Origin: a phage
Strand: one strand, 5' to 3'
DNA: 64,000 nucleotides
NCBI GenBank assembly: GCA_036253495.1
Contig: GCA_036253495.1_4125.1
Under the pieces are notes generated by a model. That model was not told the origin of the DNA. It was given only the letters and a program-made list of their open reading frames with translations, and did no database searches. The translations under genes were made by a program, and so were the position numbers. The stretch's first letter is position 1. Each line of letters starts with the position of its first letter. Shown here piece by piece: positions 3,001-63,709 of this stretch.

Positions 3001-6000
3001 TTAGTGATCATACGTTGTAAGTAATCACGAGACTGATAGCCAATTAAGTGGTTTGAAAGTTCATTTAATTGAACATCACTAACTGGGGTTTCATTATCAT
3101 AATAATGTTGGAAATTAGACACCAAAGTTTCAAATGATGGTAATGTCCCAGCTTCTAGGATGATAAATCCAGGAGCTTGTAAACGTCCAGACCATGAACC
3201 AGTGATATATCCATACAATTTAATCAATTCTTGAACTGCACCATAGGTTGGTTCATAGATATAATCACCGAAAATAGTCTGATCATCAAAAATAACAGCA
3301 TGTTCATAAGAACTGATACTTAAACGAATAAGTGCCATGCGTTTATTTGATTCTTCAGTAGTTCTTACCGTGAATATGTTACCAATACGAGATGTTTCAA
3401 TCTCAAATTGACGTATACCTTGGTTTGAATCATCTAATAATGACCAAACACCACCACTATTTTGTGCAATTGACTGAACTGAACCAAAATCTGTACCAAA
3501 TTTAGCATTAATTGCTGATGGGGTACAAGAAATGAATTCACCAGTACTCAATTGTTGTTGACTCCAGATTAAAAAGTCTTTTGCAATTGTATTCCAGTCC
3601 TGTTGGATACCAGATTCATCAACTTCTTCAAAAATCCAACCATGTTGCTTTAGATACTCACCATAACCACAAATAAATGTGTAAACTTCCTGGAAGGTAT
3701 TCATCAAAGTTCCGTAAGGAATGGATGCATCATTTTTCCACTCATTATAATGAACAACATTACGATTATCAACTTTCAAAGATACTTTATGACCGTTTTT
3801 AACAGGCAATTTATAATTGAATGTTGCAGAGACTAAATCATAACCATCAATTTGGTAAGCACTACCAGTCCAAGTAATTTTAATTGCACTCATTTGCTCA
3901 TTTCTAATATTATTAGAACGAACTAAACCGATAGATTGGTTTTCTTGTGAAATTAGACCAGTTGCTTCTGATGTAAATGTTAATTGATCAGCTTTAGTGA
4001 ATCCACCTAGTTTATGACCCACATTAATATGAGAAGAACGAACAATTTCACCGTACTTAGTTGTAATATTTTTGTTTTGATACATCAAATAATCACTAAC
4101 AATCATTTGATAACCAATAACGCGAGTACTATTCTCACCATGTACGATTGTATCACTATTAAAGTTCAAACGTAAACGAGTATCACCATATAAAAACTGT
4201 GGTTCATTACCAGATACAGTTTTTAATGTATTATTTCGGGTATCCCAGAAATAGTTTGTGAACTGTGCAGGTTTAGCTTTGAATAACATCAATAATTCAT
4301 CATATGCAAACATTGCTGTGTTCATATAAGTGAATTCCATATCACCCATATCACCATAAGTCCACGGTTCAGCACGATGATTTAGACTACCATATACAAG
4401 ACCTAAAACTTCAGGAGCAATGTACTCAATGACGCAAATATCAACACCAGATGCTGTCTGCTTGCCTGTTTCAGTGATCTTAAATGGTTGTGTACCAAAA
4501 CGTTTGTACTTGTCATATTGACCTTTACGTGCACCAAACAAGATAGTACCCGTTGAGCTATCACCTTTCTCGTTACCAACGTCCCATAACCCACTAGGAA
4601 CCATGTTACCTTGTTCGTTGATAACTAATGCCTCATATACATAAACAACATCACCATCACGTTCGCCAACTTGAACTGCGGTAGGTTCATATTCCTGGTT
4701 CCACCAAACTGGACGTTGGGAGAAACCAAACATTTCCCACGGATGGGTTGCTGGGCGATATGTACCAAATTGGTCAGTGTAGATTGCTCGCCATGATCCA
4801 CGTGCTTCTATTTGTGTTTGTTGACCATTAACCATATAATGTGTTCCAGTATAGTTCCAAGTCATCCAGTTATTTGGATCATAATCATGTGAACTGTTAC
4901 TGATACCATTGGTTGCGATGAAATTAATATAACCACGTAGTAGTAAGTTCTTTTTCTCTTCGTCATTATACTCTGTATCTCTGAAATACGGAGTTGGGAA
5001 AAGATCAGAAGCATCTAGCTTAGGTTGGTAATCTTCATCTTTGAAAATAACATCAATACTATTGAAAATTCTATTTTCTAACTCATATATAACGTCATCC
5101 ATTTTATCAACACCGTTTATTACACGGTATGCTTTAGTGATTGCACCTGTATGACTGATGTTATAACAGCTTTGCTTACTACCAGCATTCAAAAATGTTG
5201 CTTTTTCTGGAACGTGTGCTTTCAAAATACCCAAAAACTGTGGAGTTGGTGGTACAAACGCACGAATGAAGCCAGAAGTACTTGCTACGTTATCATAATA
5301 GAATGGGAAAGTATTATCATGACCCATATTAATAATTGTTAGAATTTCATCAACAATATTAGAAGCATTATTAGCTAAGAAGTTTGCTGGGTTCTCATTG
5401 TACAAACGGATCATTTGTGTATTGAACTTGTTTACGAAACGGAAATATTCGGATTGCATAAACAATACAGATTCAAATAGGTCAATATCTTCATTTGCAG
5501 AATGTGCCATTAACGGTAGCATTGATGCTTCGTTTTGAATAATCTTAGTACCAACGGAGTTATCCACTAAACCTTTAGACAAACGATCTTCGTAGTCGTT
5601 GAAATCATCAACGGAACCACTGGTGATATTCTTTTGAATGATATCTTTAAAATGTAATGTAAAATTACTTTGGTTGATATAAAGAATATTATCGTTGTAT
5701 GGGTTATTTTGTAAATTGATTGGGATTTCATATGCACCCAACTCTTTATTTGGTACTTCAGTACTGCTGTATGTTCTAATTTGAATCACTGATTCATCTT
5801 TAAGAGCTACATCTTCACCTAAAGTGATGCTTTGAACCTTGTTATTATATACATGACGTGTATAATCGGTTACATCAACTCCATCAACTTGAATTTCAAT
5901 GATTTCGGTACTCTTACCATCAATAATTTTCTGGGCTAATTCAAATGTGCGATTGAAACGTTCACTTTGAATACCTTCACCACTAATTACATGCCAATCC

Positions 6001-38625: not shown

Positions 38626-41600
38626 ATGTATATCGATGCTTATATGGAACGTAAACGTACTGGTGATATTCTTCACGTAGTTGAACGTAAAAACGGGAAG
38701 CGTATTCTCCGTGAACTGGAGCCAGTATTTGAGTATTATGTAGAATCACCATTAGGTACACACAAAACTGTATATGGTACAATGGCACAACATCTTGAGT
38801 TTTCTTCACAGGCTCAAATGAATAAAAGCGTAGAGCAGCACAAAAGTGAAGGTCTACGAATTTTTGAAAGTGATTGTAACATTACGTTTAAAACGTTAGC
38901 GAAAGAGTACATGGGTAAGGGTTCTCCTGACCTTAACATTGCATTCTTCGATATCGAAACAGACTTCCATAAGAAGTTTGGGTATGCACCACCATCAGAC
39001 CCGTTCAACCGTGTAACTGCAATTTCTTTGTATCAATCATGGACTGGTAAGGATTATGTTTTAACACTTCCTCCAGTTGACATGGAAATTTACGAAGCAC
39101 AAGACATTGTTCGACGTTTGAACGAAGAGACAAATGATCCTAACAGTACTGTCATCCTTTATACGGATGAAAAAGAAATGTTTATGGAATTCTTTAGTCT
39201 TATTGATGATTCTGATGTATTATCAGGGTGGAATAGTGAGTTCTTTGATATTCCATACATGATTAACCGCACAAAGAAAATCTTCAATGAAGCAACCACT
39301 GCTCGTTGGTGCTTGTGGAATAAGAAACCTAGTGCTCGTGAAGCAGATAACTTTGGTAAAACTGTAGTAACCTATGATTTAGTTGGTCGTGTTCACTTAG
39401 ATTATCTTGCTCTTTATAAGAAACATGCTGGTCAAGTTGAACAATCATATAAACTAGATTACATTGCAGAGAAAGTAACTAAAGAGAATAAAGTATCTTA
39501 TGAAGGTTCTTTGGATAAACTATATCGTGAAGATTACATTACCTTCTTGCGTTATTCTAAGCAGGATAGTATTCTTCTGAAGAAAATTGATGCTGTATGT
39601 GACTTTATCAACCTACACAACCGTCTTGCTCATAAAGAGTGTGTACTAATTAGTACTACAATGGGTTCGGTAGCTCTGATTGATACTGCAATTATTAACC
39701 TTGCACATAGTCGTGGTGAAGTGGTATTCAACAAAGCACCTAAAGATGATTTTGAAGTTGATTATGAAACAGAATCATATGAAGATGAAGATGATGAAGC
39801 AGATGAGAAAATTAGTGCTAAAGCTGCTGGTGCATGGGTACAAGATCCAGTACTAGGTTTGGTGAGTGATTTGGGATGTACTGACTTTAACTCACTGTAT
39901 CCAACTGTACTTCGTACATTAGGTATGAGTACTGAATGCATTCTTGGGCAACTTCGTCAGGATTACACTGATGCGTATCTTGCTGCTAAAATTCAAGAGC
40001 AAAAGGCCAAATCCAAATCGAAATCATTCGAACCAGACTGGACTGCTGCATGGCATGGTTTGTTTGCTGCTGTTGAGTTTACAATGGTTCATGAGAAATC
40101 AGATCAAACAATCATTGTTGATTTGGAAGATGGAAGTTCTTTCCATGCGACTGGCAAAGAGTTGTATGATATAATCTTTGCCGAGGACAGTACTATTGTT
40201 CTAAGTGCTAACGGAACACTATTTGACAAGTCTAAGTATGGTGTAATTCCAGACATTCTAACTCAATGGTATTCTGAACGTAAAGCACAACAAAAGATGG
40301 TAATTGATTACAAACACATGTATAGTGATGGTTGGGAATTTAATGGTCATGAGAAAGTTGAACCACTTCTATCCAACTATATTCCTGGTACAATGTTCCG
40401 CACCAACTTACATGAAAATGATCCTGTTTATCTATTGCGTATTGCAATTGGTAAAGGTCAATGGGAAGATGTAGCTAAACTAATTGTTGAAAATGGTTTA
40501 GAACTAAAAGACGGAAGAATTTTCTGTTCTAAAGAAGATAAAGCATATTTCAAACAACAAAGTGCATTCTGGAAACAGAACCAGCAGATTCGTAAGATTC
40601 TTCTAAACAGTCTATATGGTGCACTATTGAACAAAGGTTCACGTTTCTTTGATAAGCGTTTGGGTCAGTCTGTTACCTTAACTGGTCGTTCTATGACTAA
40701 ACACATGGCGAGTCGTATCAATGAAATTACAACTGGTGTTTACAATCACCAGGGTGGTTCTGTAATTTATGGTGATACTGACTCCGTATACTTCAGTGTA
40801 ACCCATTACTTGAAAGAACAAGGTATTCCGTACAATCTATCTAAAGAAGAAATTGTTGATATGTACATTAAAATTGGTGATGAAGTTGGTGAGTCCTTCC
40901 CATCTTTTATGCATCAGATGTTCAACACTGGAATTGAGAAAGGTAAGATTGTAGGTGCTGACCTTGAGATGGTAGGTTCTCGTGGATTGTTCCTGAAGAA
41001 GAAACGTTATGCAATTCTGAAGTACTGGGAAGATGGATTCCGTAAAGATGTTGATGGTAAACCTGGTGAAATCAAGGCAATGGGTCTTGAGATTAAACGT
41101 TCAGATACGCCAAAATACATCCAGAACTTCCTAGAAGAGACTCTAATCGCTCTACTGGTAGGGGAGTCAGAGGCTGAACTAAAACAGCGTGTACGTGACT
41201 TTAAAGCGGTATTTAAAGACATTCCTGTACACGAGAAAGGTTCTCCGCGTACCGTTAAGAACTACACTAATCTGGAAGCTGAATATAACACTACTGGTAA
41301 GTGTAAAGTTGGACACGTATTGGCAGGTATTCAATGGAACCGTCTACGTGAAGTGTATGATGACAAGTCAGTACCAGAAGTTACTGATGGTACAAAAGTT
41401 ATCGTGTGTAATCTAAAAGATAACCCAATGGGAATTAAAGCTGTAGGATATCCAATTGACTGTGTAGAGTATCTACCTGAATGGTTCTTAGAATTACCGT
41501 TTGATAGTGAGAAAATGGAAGAGATAGTTTTAACTAAGAAATTAGAAAACATCTTTGGTATTCTCGATATGGATATTGGTATTCATGAGAAAAGTACAGC

Positions 41601-41631
41601 AGCAGTTAACAATGGTTTCTTCTCTTGGTAA
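38626..41631 (+). CDS. 43: family B DNA polymerase (T4 gp43-like)
   Basis: 1001 aa; exonuclease motif FFDIETD, polymerase motif C YGDTDSVYF, LYPTVLR region. Confidence 0.9.
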   Translation: MYIDAYMERKRTGDILHVVERKNGKRILRELEPVFEYYVESPLGTHKTVYGTMAQHLEFSSQAQMNKSVEQHKSEGLRIFESDCNITFKTLAKEYMGKGSPDLNIAFFDIETDFHKKFGYAPPSDPFNRVTAISLYQSWTGKDYVLTLPPVDMEIYEAQDIVRRLNEETNDPNSTVILYTDEKEMFMEFFSLIDDSDVLSGWNSEFFDIPYMINRTKKIFNEATTARWCLWNKKPSAREADNFGKTVVTYDLVGRVHLDYLALYKKHAGQVEQSYKLDYIAEKVTKENKVSYEGSLDKLYREDYITFLRYSKQDSILLKKIDAVCDFINLHNRLAHKECVLISTTMGSVALIDTAIINLAHSRGEVVFNKAPKDDFEVDYETESYEDEDDEADEKISAKAAGAWVQDPVLGLVSDLGCTDFNSLYPTVLRTLGMSTECILGQLRQDYTDAYLAAKIQEQKAKSKSKSFEPDWTAAWHGLFAAVEFTMVHEKSDQTIIVDLEDGSSFHATGKELYDIIFAEDSTIVLSANGTLFDKSKYGVIPDILTQWYSERKAQQKMVIDYKHMYSDGWEFNGHEKVEPLLSNYIPGTMFRTNLHENDPVYLLRIAIGKGQWEDVAKLIVENGLELKDGRIFCSKEDKAYFKQQSAFWKQNQQIRKILLNSLYGALLNKGSRFFDKRLGQSVTLTGRSMTKHMASRINEITTGVYNHQGGSVIYGDTDSVYFSVTHYLKEQGIPYNLSKEEIVDMYIKIGDEVGESFPSFMHQMFNTGIEKGKIVGADLEMVGSRGLFLKKKRYAILKYWEDGFRKDVDGKPGEIKAMGLEIKRSDTPKYIQNFLEETLIALLVGESEAELKQRVRDFKAVFKDIPVHEKGSPRTVKNYTNLEAEYNTTGKCKVGHVLAGIQWNRLREVYDDKSVPEVTDGTKVIVCNLKDNPMGIKAVGYPIDCVEYLPEWFLELPFDSEKMEEIVLTKKLENIFGILDMDIGIHEKSTAAVNNGFFSW

Positions 41632-47297: not shown

Positions 47298-52199
<4,902 letters not shown>

Positions 52200-53901: not shown

Positions 53902-54720
53902 ATGTCTAAAATAGATGATTTTCTAAAACAAGTCTCAGTACTCGACACTGAAACCACTGGTGTTGAGAGTGATGATGATATTATTGAATTTAGTATTTCT
54001 TATCCTCAAAATGCACATGAAAATATTGACACAGTTGATAACTATACATTGCGATATAAACCATTGAAAGACATTCCACCTGAAGCGTCGGCAGTGCATT
54101 TTATCAGTACTGAAGATGTTGCAAATTGTATTGGGTATAAAGATGATCTTGAAAATATTGACGCACTAATGGGGTGTAGAGAATATTATGTTGGTCATAA
54201 TGTGCAATTTGACCGTAGAATGATGGTTGATAATGAATATAAATATCGTAACTCAATTTCACAGTATCTTCTTGATGAGGATAAATGGATTTGTACCCTT
54301 CGTTTTGCTAAGAAAATGTTTGCTGAAGATGTAGAATTCAAAAATCTAACACTAAGTTATTTGTGGTATAAATTTGGATGTTATCGTGATGTACATCGTC
54401 CTGTTAATGCTCATGCTGCAAAAGATGATGTATTCATGTGCTATCAGGTTCTAATTAAACTTATTGAAGTTGCTATTGAACGTGGTCATATTGATCCAGA
54501 ACAGGATATTGGTGAACAAATTGTCACATTCTGCAATACACCAATGCGTTATCAATTTATGCCATTTGGTAAGCATAAAGGCGAACCAATGAGTACTGTA
54601 CCATTGAATTACATTGAATGGATGATTACTAATAGTGATATCCTAGACACGAGTAATCCAAACTGTGATAAAGATTTAGTATATACATTTGAGTACGAGT
54701 ATAGTAGTCGTACTAACTAA
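53902..54720 (+). CDS. DEDDh 3'-5' exonuclease (DnaQ-like; DexA/ExoX-like) with C-terminal KHKGEP-type domain
   Basis: Exo I VLDTETTG, Exo II YVGHNVQFD, Exo III HRPVNAHAAKDD; C-terminal FGKHKGEPMSTVPLNYIEWM. Confidence 0.75.
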   Translation: MSKIDDFLKQVSVLDTETTGVESDDDIIEFSISYPQNAHENIDTVDNYTLRYKPLKDIPPEASAVHFISTEDVANCIGYKDDLENIDALMGCREYYVGHNVQFDRRMMVDNEYKYRNSISQYLLDEDKWICTLRFAKKMFAEDVEFKNLTLSYLWYKFGCYRDVHRPVNAHAAKDDVFMCYQVLIKLIEVAIERGHIDPEQDIGEQIVTFCNTPMRYQFMPFGKHKGEPMSTVPLNYIEWMITNSDILDTSNPNCDKDLVYTFEYEYSSRTN

Positions 54721-57210: not shown

Positions 57211-58053
57211 GTGTTAGATTTCAGTAATGTTAAAAGTAAATCGTCTGATGAAGTTATTAAACAAGAAAGTCATTCATTTTCTATTAATGATTTTCTTAAA
57301 CATATTGACAGGGCTGATTACAAATATTACTCTGAAATGACCGAAGAAGAACGTAAAGATTTCACACCTTATACTGTTCTTCGTTGGGTAAGTTCGTTGG
57401 ATGATTCTTTGCAAGTAACTTACCCAAGTAGTAAAGTTGAAAGCGTTTTTGGTAAATGGAAAGCTGGTGGCAAAGATGCACTTACTGAATTAATCAATGA
57501 ATTAAATTCAAGTGGTGTAAATGTGTCATCAGTGACAAAGTACTGTCATGCTGATTATGATTGGAGAATCAAGTTTGCAGTACAGGGTCAGTCCGATGCA
57601 AATAAATTGATTGCAGCCATGAATGATTTTAGCATTTCAGGGTCGGAAGTGATTTCATTGGTTGATAGCACAACAGTAAAATACCAATTGATTATGTTAA
57701 ATGATATGGTCAATGATGGTTTCTGGGATATGAAAGAACACCCTGAACTAGTTTATCAATTGATGTGTACTGTTCAGGATATGGTTGGTGGTAAAGAATT
57801 ACCACGTAGTTGGCTTAACTTTTCAAAGAGTTTAAAACATGTAAACAATGCATTATTTGACTTGATTAAAAGTACACAACCAAGTTCAGTTGCCAATCAA
57901 ATGAACGAGGATGAGTATAAAATCATCTTATTACAATACACTAAGAAATCATTCGAAACTTTACTTGACAACATGGGTTATCAAGATAAAGATTCAAAAG
58001 CAATGATGAAACTATTCAAAGAAGAATGTAAGAAATATGGCAAAGATATCTAA
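57211..58053 (+). CDS. hypothetical protein (GTG start)
   Basis: 280-aa ORF; AGGAG about 10 nt upstream of GTG. Confidence 0.45.
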   Translation: MLDFSNVKSKSSDEVIKQESHSFSINDFLKHIDRADYKYYSEMTEEERKDFTPYTVLRWVSSLDDSLQVTYPSSKVESVFGKWKAGGKDALTELINELNSSGVNVSSVTKYCHADYDWRIKFAVQGQSDANKLIAAMNDFSISGSEVISLVDSTTVKYQLIMLNDMVNDGFWDMKEHPELVYQLMCTVQDMVGGKELPRSWLNFSKSLKHVNNALFDLIKSTQPSSVANQMNEDEYKIILLQYTKKSFETLLDNMGYQDKDSKAMMKLFKEECKKYGKDI

Positions 58054-58744
58054 ACCTGTATATCAATGTAAATTTTGTGATCGTGAATTTAAACGTGAAG
58101 ACACAGTACATTCTCACAAATGTGAAAAGCGTGATAGATATGAAAATCGAGACAGCCGCACCATGCGTGAGGCTTTTCGTTTATATATGCAATTCATGGA
58201 AACTAACAATTTCAAAATTAAAAAAGATGTAGAACCATATATTAGTTTTATCAAGTCAAGATACTTTAAAGATTTCTATGATTTTGCAGAATACTATCTG
58301 AATAATAGGGATATATTGCATATAGATGATTTCACTTTACATCTTATGAGAACTAATGTTCCTATTATGCAATGGAGCACCTACAAAGCTAAGGATGAAT
58401 GGATACTTTCATGTATACGAAATGAGCACCCAAACGATGCCGTTGCAAGAAGCGTAAATGCTTTAGTAGAATGGGAACAAATGACAAATAATCCGTGGAA
58501 TACATTCTTTAAGAATGTTAGTTCTGCACGTTTGATTTCTTGGATTGAAAGTGGTAAAATATCACCTTGGTTGATATGGACTGCCCCAGTGAGTTCATCC
58601 AATGAATTGTTCTCACGACTATCAGATTCTGAATTTGAATATATACTTAAATACATCGATCCTAGCTTTTTTGAAATTAAAAAGTTGAAATATAAGAAAG
58701 AGTTTGAGGATATAAGAAGTATGTTAACTCAGGTGGGTTTATGA
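58037..58744 (+). CDS. hypothetical protein with N-terminal C2H2-like zinc-finger motif
   Basis: CKFCDREFKREDTVHSHKC near N-terminus. Confidence 0.45.
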   Translation: MAKISKPVYQCKFCDREFKREDTVHSHKCEKRDRYENRDSRTMREAFRLYMQFMETNNFKIKKDVEPYISFIKSRYFKDFYDFAEYYLNNRDILHIDDFTLHLMRTNVPIMQWSTYKAKDEWILSCIRNEHPNDAVARSVNALVEWEQMTNNPWNTFFKNVSSARLISWIESGKISPWLIWTAPVSSSNELFSRLSDSEFEYILKYIDPSFFEIKKLKYKKEFEDIRSMLTQVGL

Positions 58745-59070
58745 ATAATAAAAGTATATACAATAAAATACCAGAAGGGTACGTTCCTGTACCTAAATCG
58801 GACAAAAGTAAAGAATTACAATTACTTCGTCAAGGAAGCATAACTGAAATAACATTGGGTGACAAAACGTTCCAAGTTCATGATCCAGTAAAAATAGAAC
58901 AATTGATTAAGCTAGTCGAGAGGCATGAAGAACGTTTACATTCTGTGTCTAATGAGTCAGCACAGTTGAAAAGAAAGATTCAGTACATGGAAAACGAAAT
59001 ACGAACCTTAAGAAATTCTATTAATAAATTACAGGATCAAATAAAGAATGCAGGATTCAACCAATTCTAA
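58741..59070 (+). CDS. hypothetical coiled-coil protein
   Basis: 109-aa ORF overlapping neighbours. Confidence 0.45.
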   Translation: MNNKSIYNKIPEGYVPVPKSDKSKELQLLRQGSITEITLGDKTFQVHDPVKIEQLIKLVERHEERLHSVSNESAQLKRKIQYMENEIRTLRNSINKLQDQIKNAGFNQF

Positions 59071-59686
59071 TCATTACAGAAAAGCTAGAACAGATATTGA
59101 TATTGATTTTAAAGATAGTAAATCTGTCATAGCTCAATTGCCATGTGTAAGAAGTACTGAAAAGATTACAGAAGATGGATTGATTGCACATAATAGTGGT
59201 GTACACTTTGATAATATTCCAATCGATCCAATAACTGGTTTGGCGAGTATACAATATAAAGAAGCCGAAAGATTGGGGTATCAGAAGGTTGATATCCTTT
59301 CACAATCGGCTTACATGTATGTTCGTGACAGAGAACATCTAAAGGAACTTATGAACAGAGAGCCTAATTGGGATCTGTTGTTAGAACCAGAAATTGTTGA
59401 TCATTTATCACAAATTAAAAAGCATATAACTTTACTTAATGTTTGGAAACCCCGTTCTATAGACGAGTTGGCTATGTTTATTGCTATGATTCGCCCAGGG
59501 AAACGAAATTGTCAAAGTATGAACTCTTGGTCTGAAGTAGAATCGGTTATTTGGGATTATAGTAGTATTGGGCTAGATAGTGAGGGCAAAAAATTGCGTT
59601 ATTTTAAAAAACCACATGCTTATGCTTATAGCTTAATGATTGTGGTACAATTAAACGCATTGGTTGAACATCTTACTTCTTCTTAA
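59048..59686 (+). CDS. mini DnaE-like protein (carries Pol III alpha core-like motifs); function unknown
   Basis: 212 aa; DIDIDF (cf. DnaE PDFDVDF), AHNSGV (cf. KHAGGV), AMIRPGK (cf. ALFRPGP), KPHAYAYSL (cf. KSHSAAYAL); recalled from memory. Confidence 0.4.
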   Translation: MQDSTNSNHYRKARTDIDIDFKDSKSVIAQLPCVRSTEKITEDGLIAHNSGVHFDNIPIDPITGLASIQYKEAERLGYQKVDILSQSAYMYVRDREHLKELMNREPNWDLLLEPEIVDHLSQIKKHITLLNVWKPRSIDELAMFIAMIRPGKRNCQSMNSWSEVESVIWDYSSIGLDSEGKKLRYFKKPHAYAYSLMIVVQLNALVEHLTSS

Positions 59687-60026
59687 GTGCCACATTACGT
59701 CTTTTAATACGTTTTTGTGGCAAATCACTTAACGAAATTACCGGACCACAAACGAAATTCACCATAGGCGTATCGAAGCGTTGTGTGAAAGGTTCAAATT
59801 TCTCCATTTCTTCTTGAAAGAAAAGACACACTGGGATTGACCTGTTACTTTGCCACCACCAATCGTGTGCTATTCCTAACAATTCATCTTGCATAGATTC
59901 ATCCATAAGATCAAAACAATACAAAGTAGTATATTGCTTACTTTTAATCTTGATGATACCAATGTAAGTTTTACCATTATATTGCAGTACTGTAATAAAT
60001 GGTGGAATAGTATTATATTGATTCAT
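59673..60026 (-). CDS. hypothetical protein (lone minus-strand gene in a plus-strand block)
   Basis: 117-aa ORF; CATAAATA late-type motif on minus strand at 60063-60070. Confidence 0.45.
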   Translation of the reverse strand: MNQYNTIPPFITVLQYNGKTYIGIIKIKSKQYTTLYCFDLMDESMQDELLGIAHDWWWQSNRSIPVCLFFQEEMEKFEPFTQRFDTPMVNFVCGPVISLSDLPQKRIKRRNVALKKK

Positions 60027-61114: not shown

Positions 61115-62164
61115 ATGAACTCAGTACAAGACATTATGGCACAAATCATGAATGACCCTGTACCTGGTATTGGTATATGGGCACACCACAACTGTCCTAT
61201 GTGTGTGTTTCGTGGACATTCAAGACCTGATGTAAAGGGTCGTGGTAATCATATGTTTAATTCTGATGGTTCAGTATCTTATAACTGTTTTAACTGTAGT
61301 TTAAAGACAGGTTGGCAACCTGGAAAATATATGAGCAAAGATATGGAGTCTTTGCTCATTTCTTTTGGTGCACAACAAAAAGATATAGAATTATTAAAAT
61401 TTTACATAAAAGAAATGGTAGAGAGTGGTGATTATGCTGAACAAGAGTCTACCACATCGAAGTTATATCAAAGGGTAACAGCACGCGATTTACCACCTAA
61501 TTCAAAGACATTTTTTGAATGGGCTTCAGATGATAATGCACCCAATGAATTTTTTAGTGTACTGAATGCAGTAAATGACCGAAATCCATATCTATTGGAT
61601 TTGGAATTATATTGGAGTCCATCTAAAGAACATAAAATGTATGATAGATTTATTATACCTTACTATATGAATGGTAAAATAATTGGGTATACTGCAAGAC
61701 ATAAATTAAAAGACCCAGGAAGTACGTATCGTTTTATTAATCAGGTAAGTACTAATATTTTGTACAATTATGATTTGTTGAATGATGAACGTATAAAAAC
61801 TTTATTGGTATGTGAAGGACCAATGGATGCCGCATTGATGGGTGGTGTATCAGCAAATAACTTTAAGTTATCTACACCACAGATTGAAATACTTAAACAG
61901 GCACAGAGTAAAGGTAAAAAAGTAGTAATTGTACCAGACAGGGATAAAGATGGATTAGTGACAATTGACCAAGCATTAGAGCATGGTTTTAGTGTTGCCT
62001 TTCCAAACTTTGGAGCCGTAAAAGAAGGTAGTGGTATTCGTCACATAAAAGATTTTGACGAAGCCTGTGCCAAATATGGTCGTTTATTTTGTCTACAACT
62101 AATACATGAAAGTATAGTTGACGAACCTTTCTATATCAAAGCACAAACCGATAAATGGATGTAA
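61115..62164 (+). CDS. 61: DNA primase (T4 gp61-like; zinc ribbon + TOPRIM)
   Basis: Zn-binding CPMCVF...CFNC; TOPRIM LLVCEGPMDAA and VVIVPDRDKDG. Confidence 0.8.
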   Translation: MNSVQDIMAQIMNDPVPGIGIWAHHNCPMCVFRGHSRPDVKGRGNHMFNSDGSVSYNCFNCSLKTGWQPGKYMSKDMESLLISFGAQQKDIELLKFYIKEMVESGDYAEQESTTSKLYQRVTARDLPPNSKTFFEWASDDNAPNEFFSVLNAVNDRNPYLLDLELYWSPSKEHKMYDRFIIPYYMNGKIIGYTARHKLKDPGSTYRFINQVSTNILYNYDLLNDERIKTLLVCEGPMDAALMGGVSANNFKLSTPQIEILKQAQSKGKKVVIVPDRDKDGLVTIDQALEHGFSVAFPNFGAVKEGSGIRHIKDFDEACAKYGRLFCLQLIHESIVDEPFYIKAQTDKWM

Positions 62165-62182: not shown

Positions 62183-63709
62183 ATGATTCAAAGCACAGTG
62201 GACGTCAAACAATATGGGATTAATGCCCAACAATATCTATTATCACAAATTTTCAGTAACCCAGATTTATATGTACGCTGTAAAAATATTCTTAAACCTG
62301 AATATTTCGATAGCACTTTTCATGAAAGTATTAAATTCGTTCATGATTACAGTGCAAAATATAGTGCATCACCAACTTTAAAAGATATTGAAGTTAAGGG
62401 TGGTTTTGCATACGATAGTACTGAAGTAAGTGAGCTACACAAGCAATCAGTACTTGATACATGCAGTGAGTTCTGCCGACACAAAGCACTAGCTTTGGCT
62501 GTTGAGAAAGGTATGGAGTTAGTACATCAGAAAAAATATGGTGGAATCGAAGAACTAATTCGTGAAGCTATGCTTGTTTCTGTACAAAACGAACTAGGTC
62601 TGGATATCTTTGAAAATCCAGAAGATACAATTCGCTCACTAAGTACGATGCAAGGTTCATTCAAGAGTGGTTGGGAAACACTGGACTTTAAACTATTTGG
62701 TGGTTTCGGTCGCCGTGAACTTGAGATCTTCGCAGCAGCATCCGGTGGTGGTAAATCAGTTGTTCTGCAAAACTTAGCAGTAAACTTTGCTAAAGCTGGA
62801 CTGAACGGTGCTTACATTTCACTAGAACTTGCTGAAGAGTTGGTTGCAGTCCGTATCTATGGTATGATGACTGAATCCAAATTGAGTAATGTTAAACATG
62901 AAGCAGACCGAATTGGTTTACAAGTACAAATGGAAGGTAAAAACAGTGGTGTAATGCGTATCAAGCGTTTGCCTGAATCTGTGACAACCACAGATGATAT
63001 TGAAAGTTACCTTCGTGAATTACAAATCAAATTGGAAATTAAACTTGATTATGTTTGTGTGGACTACTTAGATCTATTAACATCTAATCGTCTTGGTCCA
63101 AATGATAAATCGAATACATTTACCAAAGATAAGTTTGTTTCTGAAGAATTGCGTGCTCTAGCAACTAAGATGGATTTAACTGTATTCACTGCATCCCAGT
63201 TTAACCGTAGTGGTATGGGTGAAGATAAGAAAAGCCAAAGTCAGATTGCTGGTGGTATTTCAAAGATCTATACCGCAGATAACGTAATTTACATTGAAGC
63301 ACGAAAAGAAACTGGTGAGATGTGGTTCGACTTCCAGAAAACACGTAACAGTAGTGCAGTTGGTTCTCGTTTGCGTATGTCTTATGACATTGATTCATTA
63401 CGTGTGTTGGACCATGCAACAACCATTCAGCAATTCGAAACCGATGGTTCTGGGTTCAAGCATAGCGGACTAACAAAGGTCGGTGGTGGTAACATGGCAC
63501 TCCCCCCAACCACTATGCAAACATTGCGTCACACGCTTTCTGGTGCACAAAAACCAGTACAAACACAAAGTACTGTTGAAGCTGATGACGTAACACTAAA
63601 TACAGAAAATGCTACACTTTCTAGCACTACAGAGGAAACCCAACAACCTGTTAATATTGGCACTAATCGTGCGAATATGATGAAACAATGGTTGAATCAA
63701 AGGAAATAA
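62183..63709 (+). CDS. 41: replicative DnaB-like helicase (T4 gp41-like)
   Basis: Walker A AASGGGKSV, Walker B YVCVDYLD; size and adjacency to primase. Confidence 0.85.
   Translation: MIQSTVDVKQYGINAQQYLLSQIFSNPDLYVRCKNILKPEYFDSTFHESIKFVHDYSAKYSASPTLKDIEVKGGFAYDSTEVSELHKQSVLDTCSEFCRHKALALAVEKGMELVHQKKYGGIEELIREAMLVSVQNELGLDIFENPEDTIRSLSTMQGSFKSGWETLDFKLFGGFGRRELEIFAAASGGGKSVVLQNLAVNFAKAGLNGAYISLELAEELVAVRIYGMMTESKLSNVKHEADRIGLQVQMEGKNSGVMRIKRLPESVTTTDDIESYLRELQIKLEIKLDYVCVDYLDLLTSNRLGPNDKSNTFTKDKFVSEELRALATKMDLTVFTASQFNRSGMGEDKKSQSQIAGGISKIYTADNVIYIEARKETGEMWFDFQKTRNSSAVGSRLRMSYDIDSLRVLDHATTIQQFETDGSGFKHSGLTKVGGGNMALPPTTMQTLRHTLSGAQKPVQTQSTVEADDVTLNTENATLSSTTEETQQPVNIGTNRANMMKQWLNQRK

Follow-up and report, generated by a model that had tools for sequence, protein, structure and literature searches.

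A 212-residue jumbo-phage protein as the probable C-terminal half of a split minimal DNA polymerase III alpha

Results

The ORF and its DnaE motifs

The DNA analysed here (the window) is a 64,000-nt stretch of a phage genome (GenBank assembly GCA_036253495.1, contig GCA_036253495.1_4125.1), in which we studied a 212-amino-acid (aa) open reading frame (ORF) related to DnaE, the alpha subunit of DNA polymerase III (Pol III). The window is a close variant of Escherichia phage A4 (ON286972.1), an Asteriusvirus jumbo myovirus of 355.5 kb in the 121Q/PBECO4/RaK2 group, and not the deposited record itself. The two were 99.3% identical over the 3 kb compared, and window position 58000 corresponded to 240960 of ON286972.1; window coordinates were taken from the ORF list. 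The window carries indels relative to ON286972.1, with upstream offsets of about 8 to 150 nt (38626 vs 38634 for the polymerase gene; 7620 vs 7469 for the baseplate wedge). The ORF, which we call the C-unit, and its motifs are listed below.

59048..59686, + strand: C-unit, 212 aa, ATG start, phrog_11778, orthologue of A4_42 of Escherichia phage A4
59093..59110, + strand: DIDIDF (residues 16-21), aligned to MPDIDIDF of M. tuberculosis DnaE1
59186..59203, + strand: AHNSGV (residues 47-52), palm strand equivalent to E. coli KHAGGV 510-515
59276..59299, + strand: GYQKVDIL (residues 77-84), placed by hidden Markov model (HMM) alignments to DnaE GLVKFDFLG / GLLKMDFLG
59459..59503, + strand: IDELAMFIAMIRPGK (residues 138-152), finger helix and RPG turn equivalent to E. 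coli 628-642, placed by hhalign and HMM alignments
59609..59671, + strand: KPHAYAYSL... (residues 188-208), O-helix equivalent, aligned to FNKSHAAAY

A first-pass annotation, made from the sequence alone, had reported four DnaE motifs in this ORF, in the order in which they occur in DnaE. We found the ORF and the four motifs as described, and the DnaE strings quoted there were exactly those of E. coli DnaE, whose sequence we fetched and translated for numbering; GYQKVDIL had gone unnoticed. D401, D403 and D555 of E. coli DnaE are catalytic, and H760 is the steric gate, which is invariant in Pol III alpha (PMC8485763, from which all catalytic roles were taken). By alignment, D16 and D18 correspond to D401 and D403, D20 to D405, H48 and G51 to H511 and G514, and K80 and D82 to K553 and D555, which makes D82 the third catalytic aspartate. 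R149-P150-G151 matches R639-P640-G641, and an invariant lysine, K152, stands where the DnaE RPGP turn has a proline. K188-P189-H190 matches K758-S759-H760, and Y194 matches Y764. The finger O-helix with an equivalent of the steric-gate histidine (H190) is therefore present.

Conservation was read from two alignments, one of 27 sequences and a broader one of 39 sequences that extends down to 26% identity. All 27 sequences in the first keep D16, D18, D20, H48, G51, G77, Y78, K80, D82, R149, P150, K152, K187, H190 and Y194. In the broader alignment D16, D18, H48, G51, K80, D82 and P150 were invariant, and D20, R149 and H190 nearly so. All three acidic residues (D16, D18 and D82) are thus conserved.

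Homology to the catalytic core of DnaE and PolC

Searches with the single sequence gave sub-threshold or spurious matches, so that only profiles and structure settled the relationship to DnaE. In Pfam, the ORF matched DNA_pol3_finger only (E 0.19, 11.5 bits, against a cut-off of 22), and neither this family nor DNA_pol3_alpha was matched at the gathering threshold; the best family member reached E 0.0031, and DNA_pol3_finger matches were present in 14 of the 27 family members. Two candidate matches were rejected as spurious: mannosylglycerate synthase, the top match of a single-sequence phmmer search of the PDB (E 0.28), and a Smith-Waterman alignment to E. coli DnaE that fell in the PHP region. 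Profile A1, compared by hhalign with E. coli DnaE as a single sequence, gave a weak match (probability 5%, E 0.008).

When the PDB was searched with the 39-sequence profile (A4 profile), nine Pol III alpha chains ranked first (E 0.003-0.11). The matched blocks (DxDxD, G..K.DFL, RPG and F.KSHA..Y) were collinear. The predicted model of the C-unit is a compact, confident fold, and its nearest structural relatives are exclusively replicative polymerases. Profile and structure together establish that the ORF is homologous to the catalytic core of DnaE and PolC.

The product was 100% identical to A4_42, which the A4 record labels 'hypothetical protein', and matched phrog_11778 ('DNA polymerase') with E 3e-106. 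Clustering at 90% left 592 homologues and clustering at 50% left 544, almost all of them standalone proteins of about 200 aa; several GenBank/RefSeq records name them 'DNA polymerase' or 'DNA polymerase III alpha subunit'. A homologue with 37% identity was also found in Alishewanella phage vB_AspM_Slickus01 (OQ508957.1 68370..68840), whose genome, at 141.6 kb, falls short of the 200 kb that usually marks a jumbo phage. Members of the family are thus not found strictly in jumbo genomes alone.

Compared with its PBECO4 orthologue, the ORF showed 81% nucleotide and 91% amino-acid identity. The proportions of nonsynonymous (pN) and synonymous (pS) differences were 0.060 and 0.714, giving a ratio of nonsynonymous to synonymous substitution (dN/dS) of about 0.03, with dS near saturation. 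The C-unit is under purifying selection and is a working gene.

Regions of DnaE missing from the ORF

The canonical C-family architecture consists of PHP, Pol3 core, (HhH)2, clamp motif, OB and a C-terminal domain (CTD) (PMC3919608). DnaE and PolC (PDB 2HNH, 2HPI, 3E0D, 5LEW, 3F2B) have about 1160 aa, against 212 in the C-unit. The gap between the DxD motif and the HxxG strand is 27 residues (D20 to H48), compared with 105 between E. coli D405 and H511, which indicates that the thumb is absent. From the RPG turn to the KSH motif there are 36 residues instead of 116, so the large finger insertion (index finger) is also absent, and Y194 is followed by 18 residues, compared with about 396 in E. 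coli. The ORF begins 15 residues before D16, which leaves no room for a PHP domain. Nor does it contain counterparts of the ring and little fingers, (HhH)2, the clamp-binding motif, OB or CTD of DnaE; the finger-subdomain names are used in their usual sense, and nothing here depends on exact subdomain boundaries. A Pfam scan of the ORF likewise found no PHP, (HhH)2, clamp-binding or OB domain. Spacing and Pfam thus show a protein that lacks PHP, thumb and most of the fingers, in agreement with the first-pass annotation, which had noted no PHP, thumb or fingers-extension regions.

The N-terminal half is encoded by a separate gene

A Pol-beta-like palm requires a helix-G[GS] element, which binds the nucleoside triphosphate (NTP), in addition to an acidic triad. 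The C-unit carries the triad (D16, D18, D82) but has no G[GS] motif. The genome paper of phage CBB describes a separate 172-aa 'truncated Pol III alpha' gene, and its equivalent in phage A4 is the following gene, which we call the N-unit.

ON286972.1 273612..274130: A4_84 (N-unit), 172 aa, phrog_11127 'DNA polymerase'

A4_84 lies 31.6 kb downstream of the C-unit, about 27 kb past the end of the window, and about 1 kb upstream of the clamp-loader gene. In Pfam it scores above the gathering cut-off of DNA_pol3_alpha (38.6 bits, E 1.2e-9). An ungapped alignment pairs its residues 96-170 with E. coli DnaE 318-392, GRGS loop (R362-G363-S364) included; GRGSS forms residues 139-143 of A4_84 and is conserved among N-units. 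A4_84 ends with ...NEFLKW, equivalent to E. coli ...ERFLNP (about residue 392), and the conserved region of the C-unit starts at the equivalent of about residue 396, so that on DnaE the two proteins lie end to end with about four residues between them. N-unit conservation was read from alignment A3; a MAFFT alignment (A2) had misplaced the N-units and was discarded. In A3, all standalone N-units carry an invariant glutamate at the C-terminus (xEFL), where the DnaE motif is FERFL.

A tblastn search of the window for an N-unit found none (best match E 0.054). Given the close identity of the window to phage A4, its genome presumably encodes an N-unit outside this stretch. In the approximately 124 kb of the 355-kb A4 genome that we inspected, no other Pol III alpha domain was annotated. 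Orthologues in related phages were plentiful: 96 phage records contained the C-unit and 95 contained the N-unit, and the hosts were distributed identically in the two sets. The related phages are RaK2, 121Q, CBB, GAP32, PA5oct, XacN1 and Atu_ph07.

Natural fusions of the two halves

Both halves also occur in a single chain. P0185, P0270 and P0271 (375-376 aa) each consist of an N-unit followed by a C-unit in one ORF; they are mutually 78-81% identical and come from three independent metagenomic clusters in different samples. P0265 (336 aa) is a second fused form with the same order of halves and a shorter N-terminus.

L005 1066..2193: P0185, fusion, 375 aa, complete ORF inside the contig
L008 1516..3174 and 3171..4181: PF03090 'Replicase' (Rep) protein, 552 aa, with a helix-turn-helix, and P0265, on an 8-kb contig

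Residues 10-180 of P0185 align with A4_84 over its full length (36% identity, E 5e-26), and the C-unit profile matches residues 189-372. In Pfam, P0185 matches DNA_pol3_alpha (E 4.8e-16) past the junction as far as residue 207, a stretch that takes in the DFDID motif. An AlphaFold2 model of P0185 had a predicted local distance difference test score (pLDDT) of 88.3 and a predicted template modelling score (pTM) of 0.86; the sole low-confidence segment in its core was the linker, residues 181-190. In every fusion the halves are joined in DnaE order. The start of P0265 overlaps the stop codon of the Rep gene (ATGA) on the one contig seen, which looks like a compact replication module made of Rep and a mini-polymerase.

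The combined evidence makes it likely that the 212-aa ORF encodes the C-terminal subunit of the split mini Pol III alpha known from group 2.2 jumbo phages. The first-pass phrase 'catalytic core in miniature' was right about homology to the DnaE/PolC core, and it needs amending in that only half of the core lies in this ORF; GRGSS is in A4_84.

Genomic neighbourhood

Other replication genes in the window are listed below.

38626..41631, + strand: family B DNA polymerase, 1001 aa (Pfam DNA_pol_B E 6.6e-21, DNA_pol_B_exo1 E 3.7e-22)
53902..54720, + strand: DnaQ/epsilon-like 3'-5' exonuclease (RNase_T E 6.3e-14; 'putative DNA polymerase III epsilon subunit' in A4)
61115..62164, + strand: DnaG-type primase ('putative DNA primase' in A4, 'DNA primase subunit' in PBECO4/PA5oct; weak Pfam Toprim match, E 0.0095)
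62183..63709, + strand: DnaB-type replicative helicase (Pfam DnaB_C E 8e-17)

The family B polymerase, whose coexistence with the DnaE-like ORF had been pointed out in the first-pass annotation, is presumed from its sequence to be the main replicase. The block upstream of the C-unit contains, in order, genes for SSB, RecA/UvsX, UvsY, the DnaQ-like exonuclease and a helicase, and three unknown ORFs. A small coiled-coil 'structural' ORF immediately precedes the C-unit, which is followed by a small antisense ORF, a structural gene, the primase gene (1.4 kb downstream) and the DnaB gene. The order of this replication/recombination block is repeated in PA5oct and in distant metagenomic relatives. 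Scans for promoters and terminators near the C-unit gave results no better than chance.

The antisense ORF (59673..60026, - strand, 117 aa, phrog_11637) shares 14 nt with the 3' end of the C-unit gene. In PA5oct (gp263) and in two metagenomic loci (L011, L012), a gene of about 120 aa on the minus strand occupies the same position, and the convergent arrangement appears to be conserved. Farther upstream, A4_29 and A4_30 are consecutive genes that are both annotated 'large terminase subunit' (window about 47298..48002 and 48278..49615, + strand); the large terminase gene may be split or interrupted.

A zinc-finger protein encoded near the C-unit

58037..58744, + strand: C2HC/C2H2-type zinc-finger protein, 235 aa, phrog_11058, = A4_40

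This protein has a C-x2-C-x12-H-x-C motif at its N-terminus. Members of phrog_11058 were found in 94 phage records, a set that roughly coincides with that of the two mini Pol III halves. With between zero and three small genes in between, the zinc-finger gene precedes the C-unit in at least six divergent lineages. The genomes concerned are those of the Asteriusvirus, RaK2, CBB and GAP32 lineages, a Vibrio phage, PA5oct-like phages and five metagenomic loci (L006, L007, L011, L012 and L013); a homologous ORF is directly upstream of the C-unit in L006/L007 (E 5e-12), PA5oct and L011-L013. In Xoo-sp13, XacN1 and CM1 the zinc-finger gene is not beside the C-unit. Much of the adjacency reflects general synteny of the replisome block; in L006 and L007 the pair is kept amid otherwise different neighbours. 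A 200-aa ORF upstream of the L006 C-unit, considered as an adjacent N-unit, was ruled out (BLASTP E 0.18) and is the zinc-finger homologue. PDB and Pfam searches with the zinc-finger protein were uninformative. It is speculative to regard this protein as an accessory DNA-binding subunit of the mini Pol III.

Directly upstream of the zinc-finger gene is a conserved 280-aa ORF (57211..58053, + strand, phrog_11758) that has no Pfam match; similar N-terminal sequences were found in L012 and L013. The Turkey3 record has 'sliding-clamp-loader small subunit' among its features under the zinc-finger match, a label that may refer to this 280-aa ORF.

Discussion

Proposed mechanism

We propose that the N-unit and C-unit would assemble non-covalently into a heterodimer with one Pol-beta-type active site. 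Neither piece contains intein sequence, each is a small complete protein, and no other part of DnaE was annotated in the A4 sequence inspected, so the halves could only associate non-covalently. The C-unit would contribute the palm strands with the metal-binding aspartates, stripped-down fingers with the RPG turn, and the O-helix. The GRGS loop of the N-unit and K80 would hold the incoming triphosphate, D16, D18 and D82 would bind two Mg2+ ions, and H190 on the O-helix would exclude ribonucleotides, so that the complex would add deoxynucleoside triphosphates (dNTPs) to a primer on a template. On balance, we favour templated DNA polymerase activity for the assembled pair. Because thumb, clamp-binding motif, (HhH)2, OB and PHP are all missing, synthesis would probably be short-patch and distributive unless other phage proteins supply DNA binding. 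The most likely role would be that of an auxiliary replisome polymerase beside the family B replicase, which might for instance extend the primers made by primase or fill gaps or recombination intermediates; such a role is suggested by the position of the C-unit near primase and helicase genes and by the coupling of P0265 to Rep.

Several observations weigh against this proposal. A literature search found no biochemical or genetic study of activity or of heterodimer formation. Sequence-only support for the C-unit is marginal (E 0.19 in Pfam, 0.003 for the best PDB profile match), and the model that represents the assembly is that of a fused homologue, about 36% identical to the A4 proteins, and not a heterodimer prediction. 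The thumb and all duplex- and clamp-binding modules are missing, which leaves the grip on the primer-template unexplained. In N-units a glutamate replaces the arginine of E. coli position 390. In every isolated phage compared, 14-44 kb separate the two genes, so that their co-expression is an assumption.

Alternative explanations

The first-pass annotation had read the 212-aa protein as a complete, radically minimised C-family-like nucleotidyltransferase that works alone. In its favour, the three catalytic aspartates, K80 and the steric-gate histidine are all in the ORF, and its model is compact and confident. This idea does not fit the distribution of the remaining parts: the helix-G[GS] NTP-binding half sits in the separate, conserved A4_84, the family boundary falls at E. 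coli residue ~396, an N-unit partner is found in essentially every genome, and the fusions always join both halves in DnaE order. We give it next to no credence. The same annotation had also considered a domesticated fragment, that is, a catalytically dead remnant with a structural or regulatory part in the replisome. The extreme reduction, the annotation of several neighbouring genes as virion structural proteins and the lack of demonstrated activity are consistent with a pseudoenzyme. Pseudoenzymes usually lose their catalytic residues, whereas here the broader alignment shows no variation at D16, D18, D82, K80, H48, G51 or P150 and almost none at H190 and R149, GRGSS is conserved in the N-units as well, and dN/dS is only about 0.03. 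A dead remnant is accordingly very unlikely.

It is harder to dismiss an active two-piece enzyme that is not a templated polymerase and acts instead as a terminal transferase, an NTP-using primer or tail synthase, or a nucleotide-signal synthase. Many nucleotidyltransferases of the Pol-beta-fold superfamily are not polymerases. Most contacts with duplex DNA are gone along with the thumb, index finger, (HhH)2, OB and clamp motif, and the invariant K152 in place of the RPGP proline also speaks for this reading. Against this, the O-helix is kept, with its dNTP-selecting steric-gate histidine and Y194 essentially invariant, and the nearest structural relatives are all replicative polymerases. The gene also lies in a conserved replisome block by primase and helicase, and translational coupling links one of the fused homologues to a Rep replicase gene. 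We consider a non-polymerase function unlikely and retain the split polymerase as our interpretation.

As an extension of the split polymerase, we considered a three-part primer-extension enzyme, in which the N-unit and C-unit would form the active site and the zinc-finger protein would supply the grip on DNA normally given by the missing thumb and (HhH)2. This enzyme would take primers made by the primase before hand-off to the family B replicase. We rate the extension as unlikely. If it were true, the 336-376-aa fusions would be the smallest self-contained C-family polymerases known, and a fusion combined with a primase might make up a minimal replication module and serve as a model of the ancestral C-family enzyme.

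Significance

If the two proteins reconstitute a polymerase, it would be by far the smallest C-family DNA polymerase, with about 380 residues compared with about 1160; P0185, P0270 and P0271, if active, would be the smallest single-chain members. Such an enzyme would mark the smallest catalytic unit of the bacterial replicase fold and provide a natural split of an active site between polypeptides. It would also bear on the origin of the C family from Pol-beta-like nucleotidyltransferases and on the place of a second polymerase in phages with a T4-type family B replisome.

Comparison with known systems

The intein-split DnaE of cyanobacteria is likewise encoded by two distant genes (PMC3919608). 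The cyanobacterial halves are trans-spliced to full length, whereas the phage pieces have no intein sequences and each is a small complete protein. A functional analogy is offered by B. subtilis, in which DnaE works beside PolC; according to PMC5627055, this second C-family polymerase, in a replisome whose main replicase is another enzyme, elongates the products of primase and then hands them off. The DnaE of B. subtilis is a full-length, clamp-binding protein, and for the phage enzyme such a role is drawn by analogy only.

The closest known system is the split minimal Pol III alpha of group 2.2 jumbo phages, which was predicted from sequence in the available text of Iyer et al. (2021, Viruses 13:63, PMC7824862) and suggested there to cooperate with the family B polymerase in strand synthesis or repair. 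The family and its split interpretation have thus been known since 2021, and PHROGs labels both halves 'DNA polymerase'. In the main text of that paper we found no mention of the fusions, the Rep-coupled fusion, the zinc-finger neighbour, the residue mapping or the structure-search statistics. Our identification of the ORF with their C-terminal unit rests on the description in the text available, together with phrog and phyletic identity. The two share, as far as that description goes, a standalone protein of about 200 aa with Mg2+-binding and template-binding subdomains, a distantly encoded NTP-binding unit, a family B polymerase and a group 2.2 jumbo phage with a T4-like replisome, and by the same description nothing essential differs between them.
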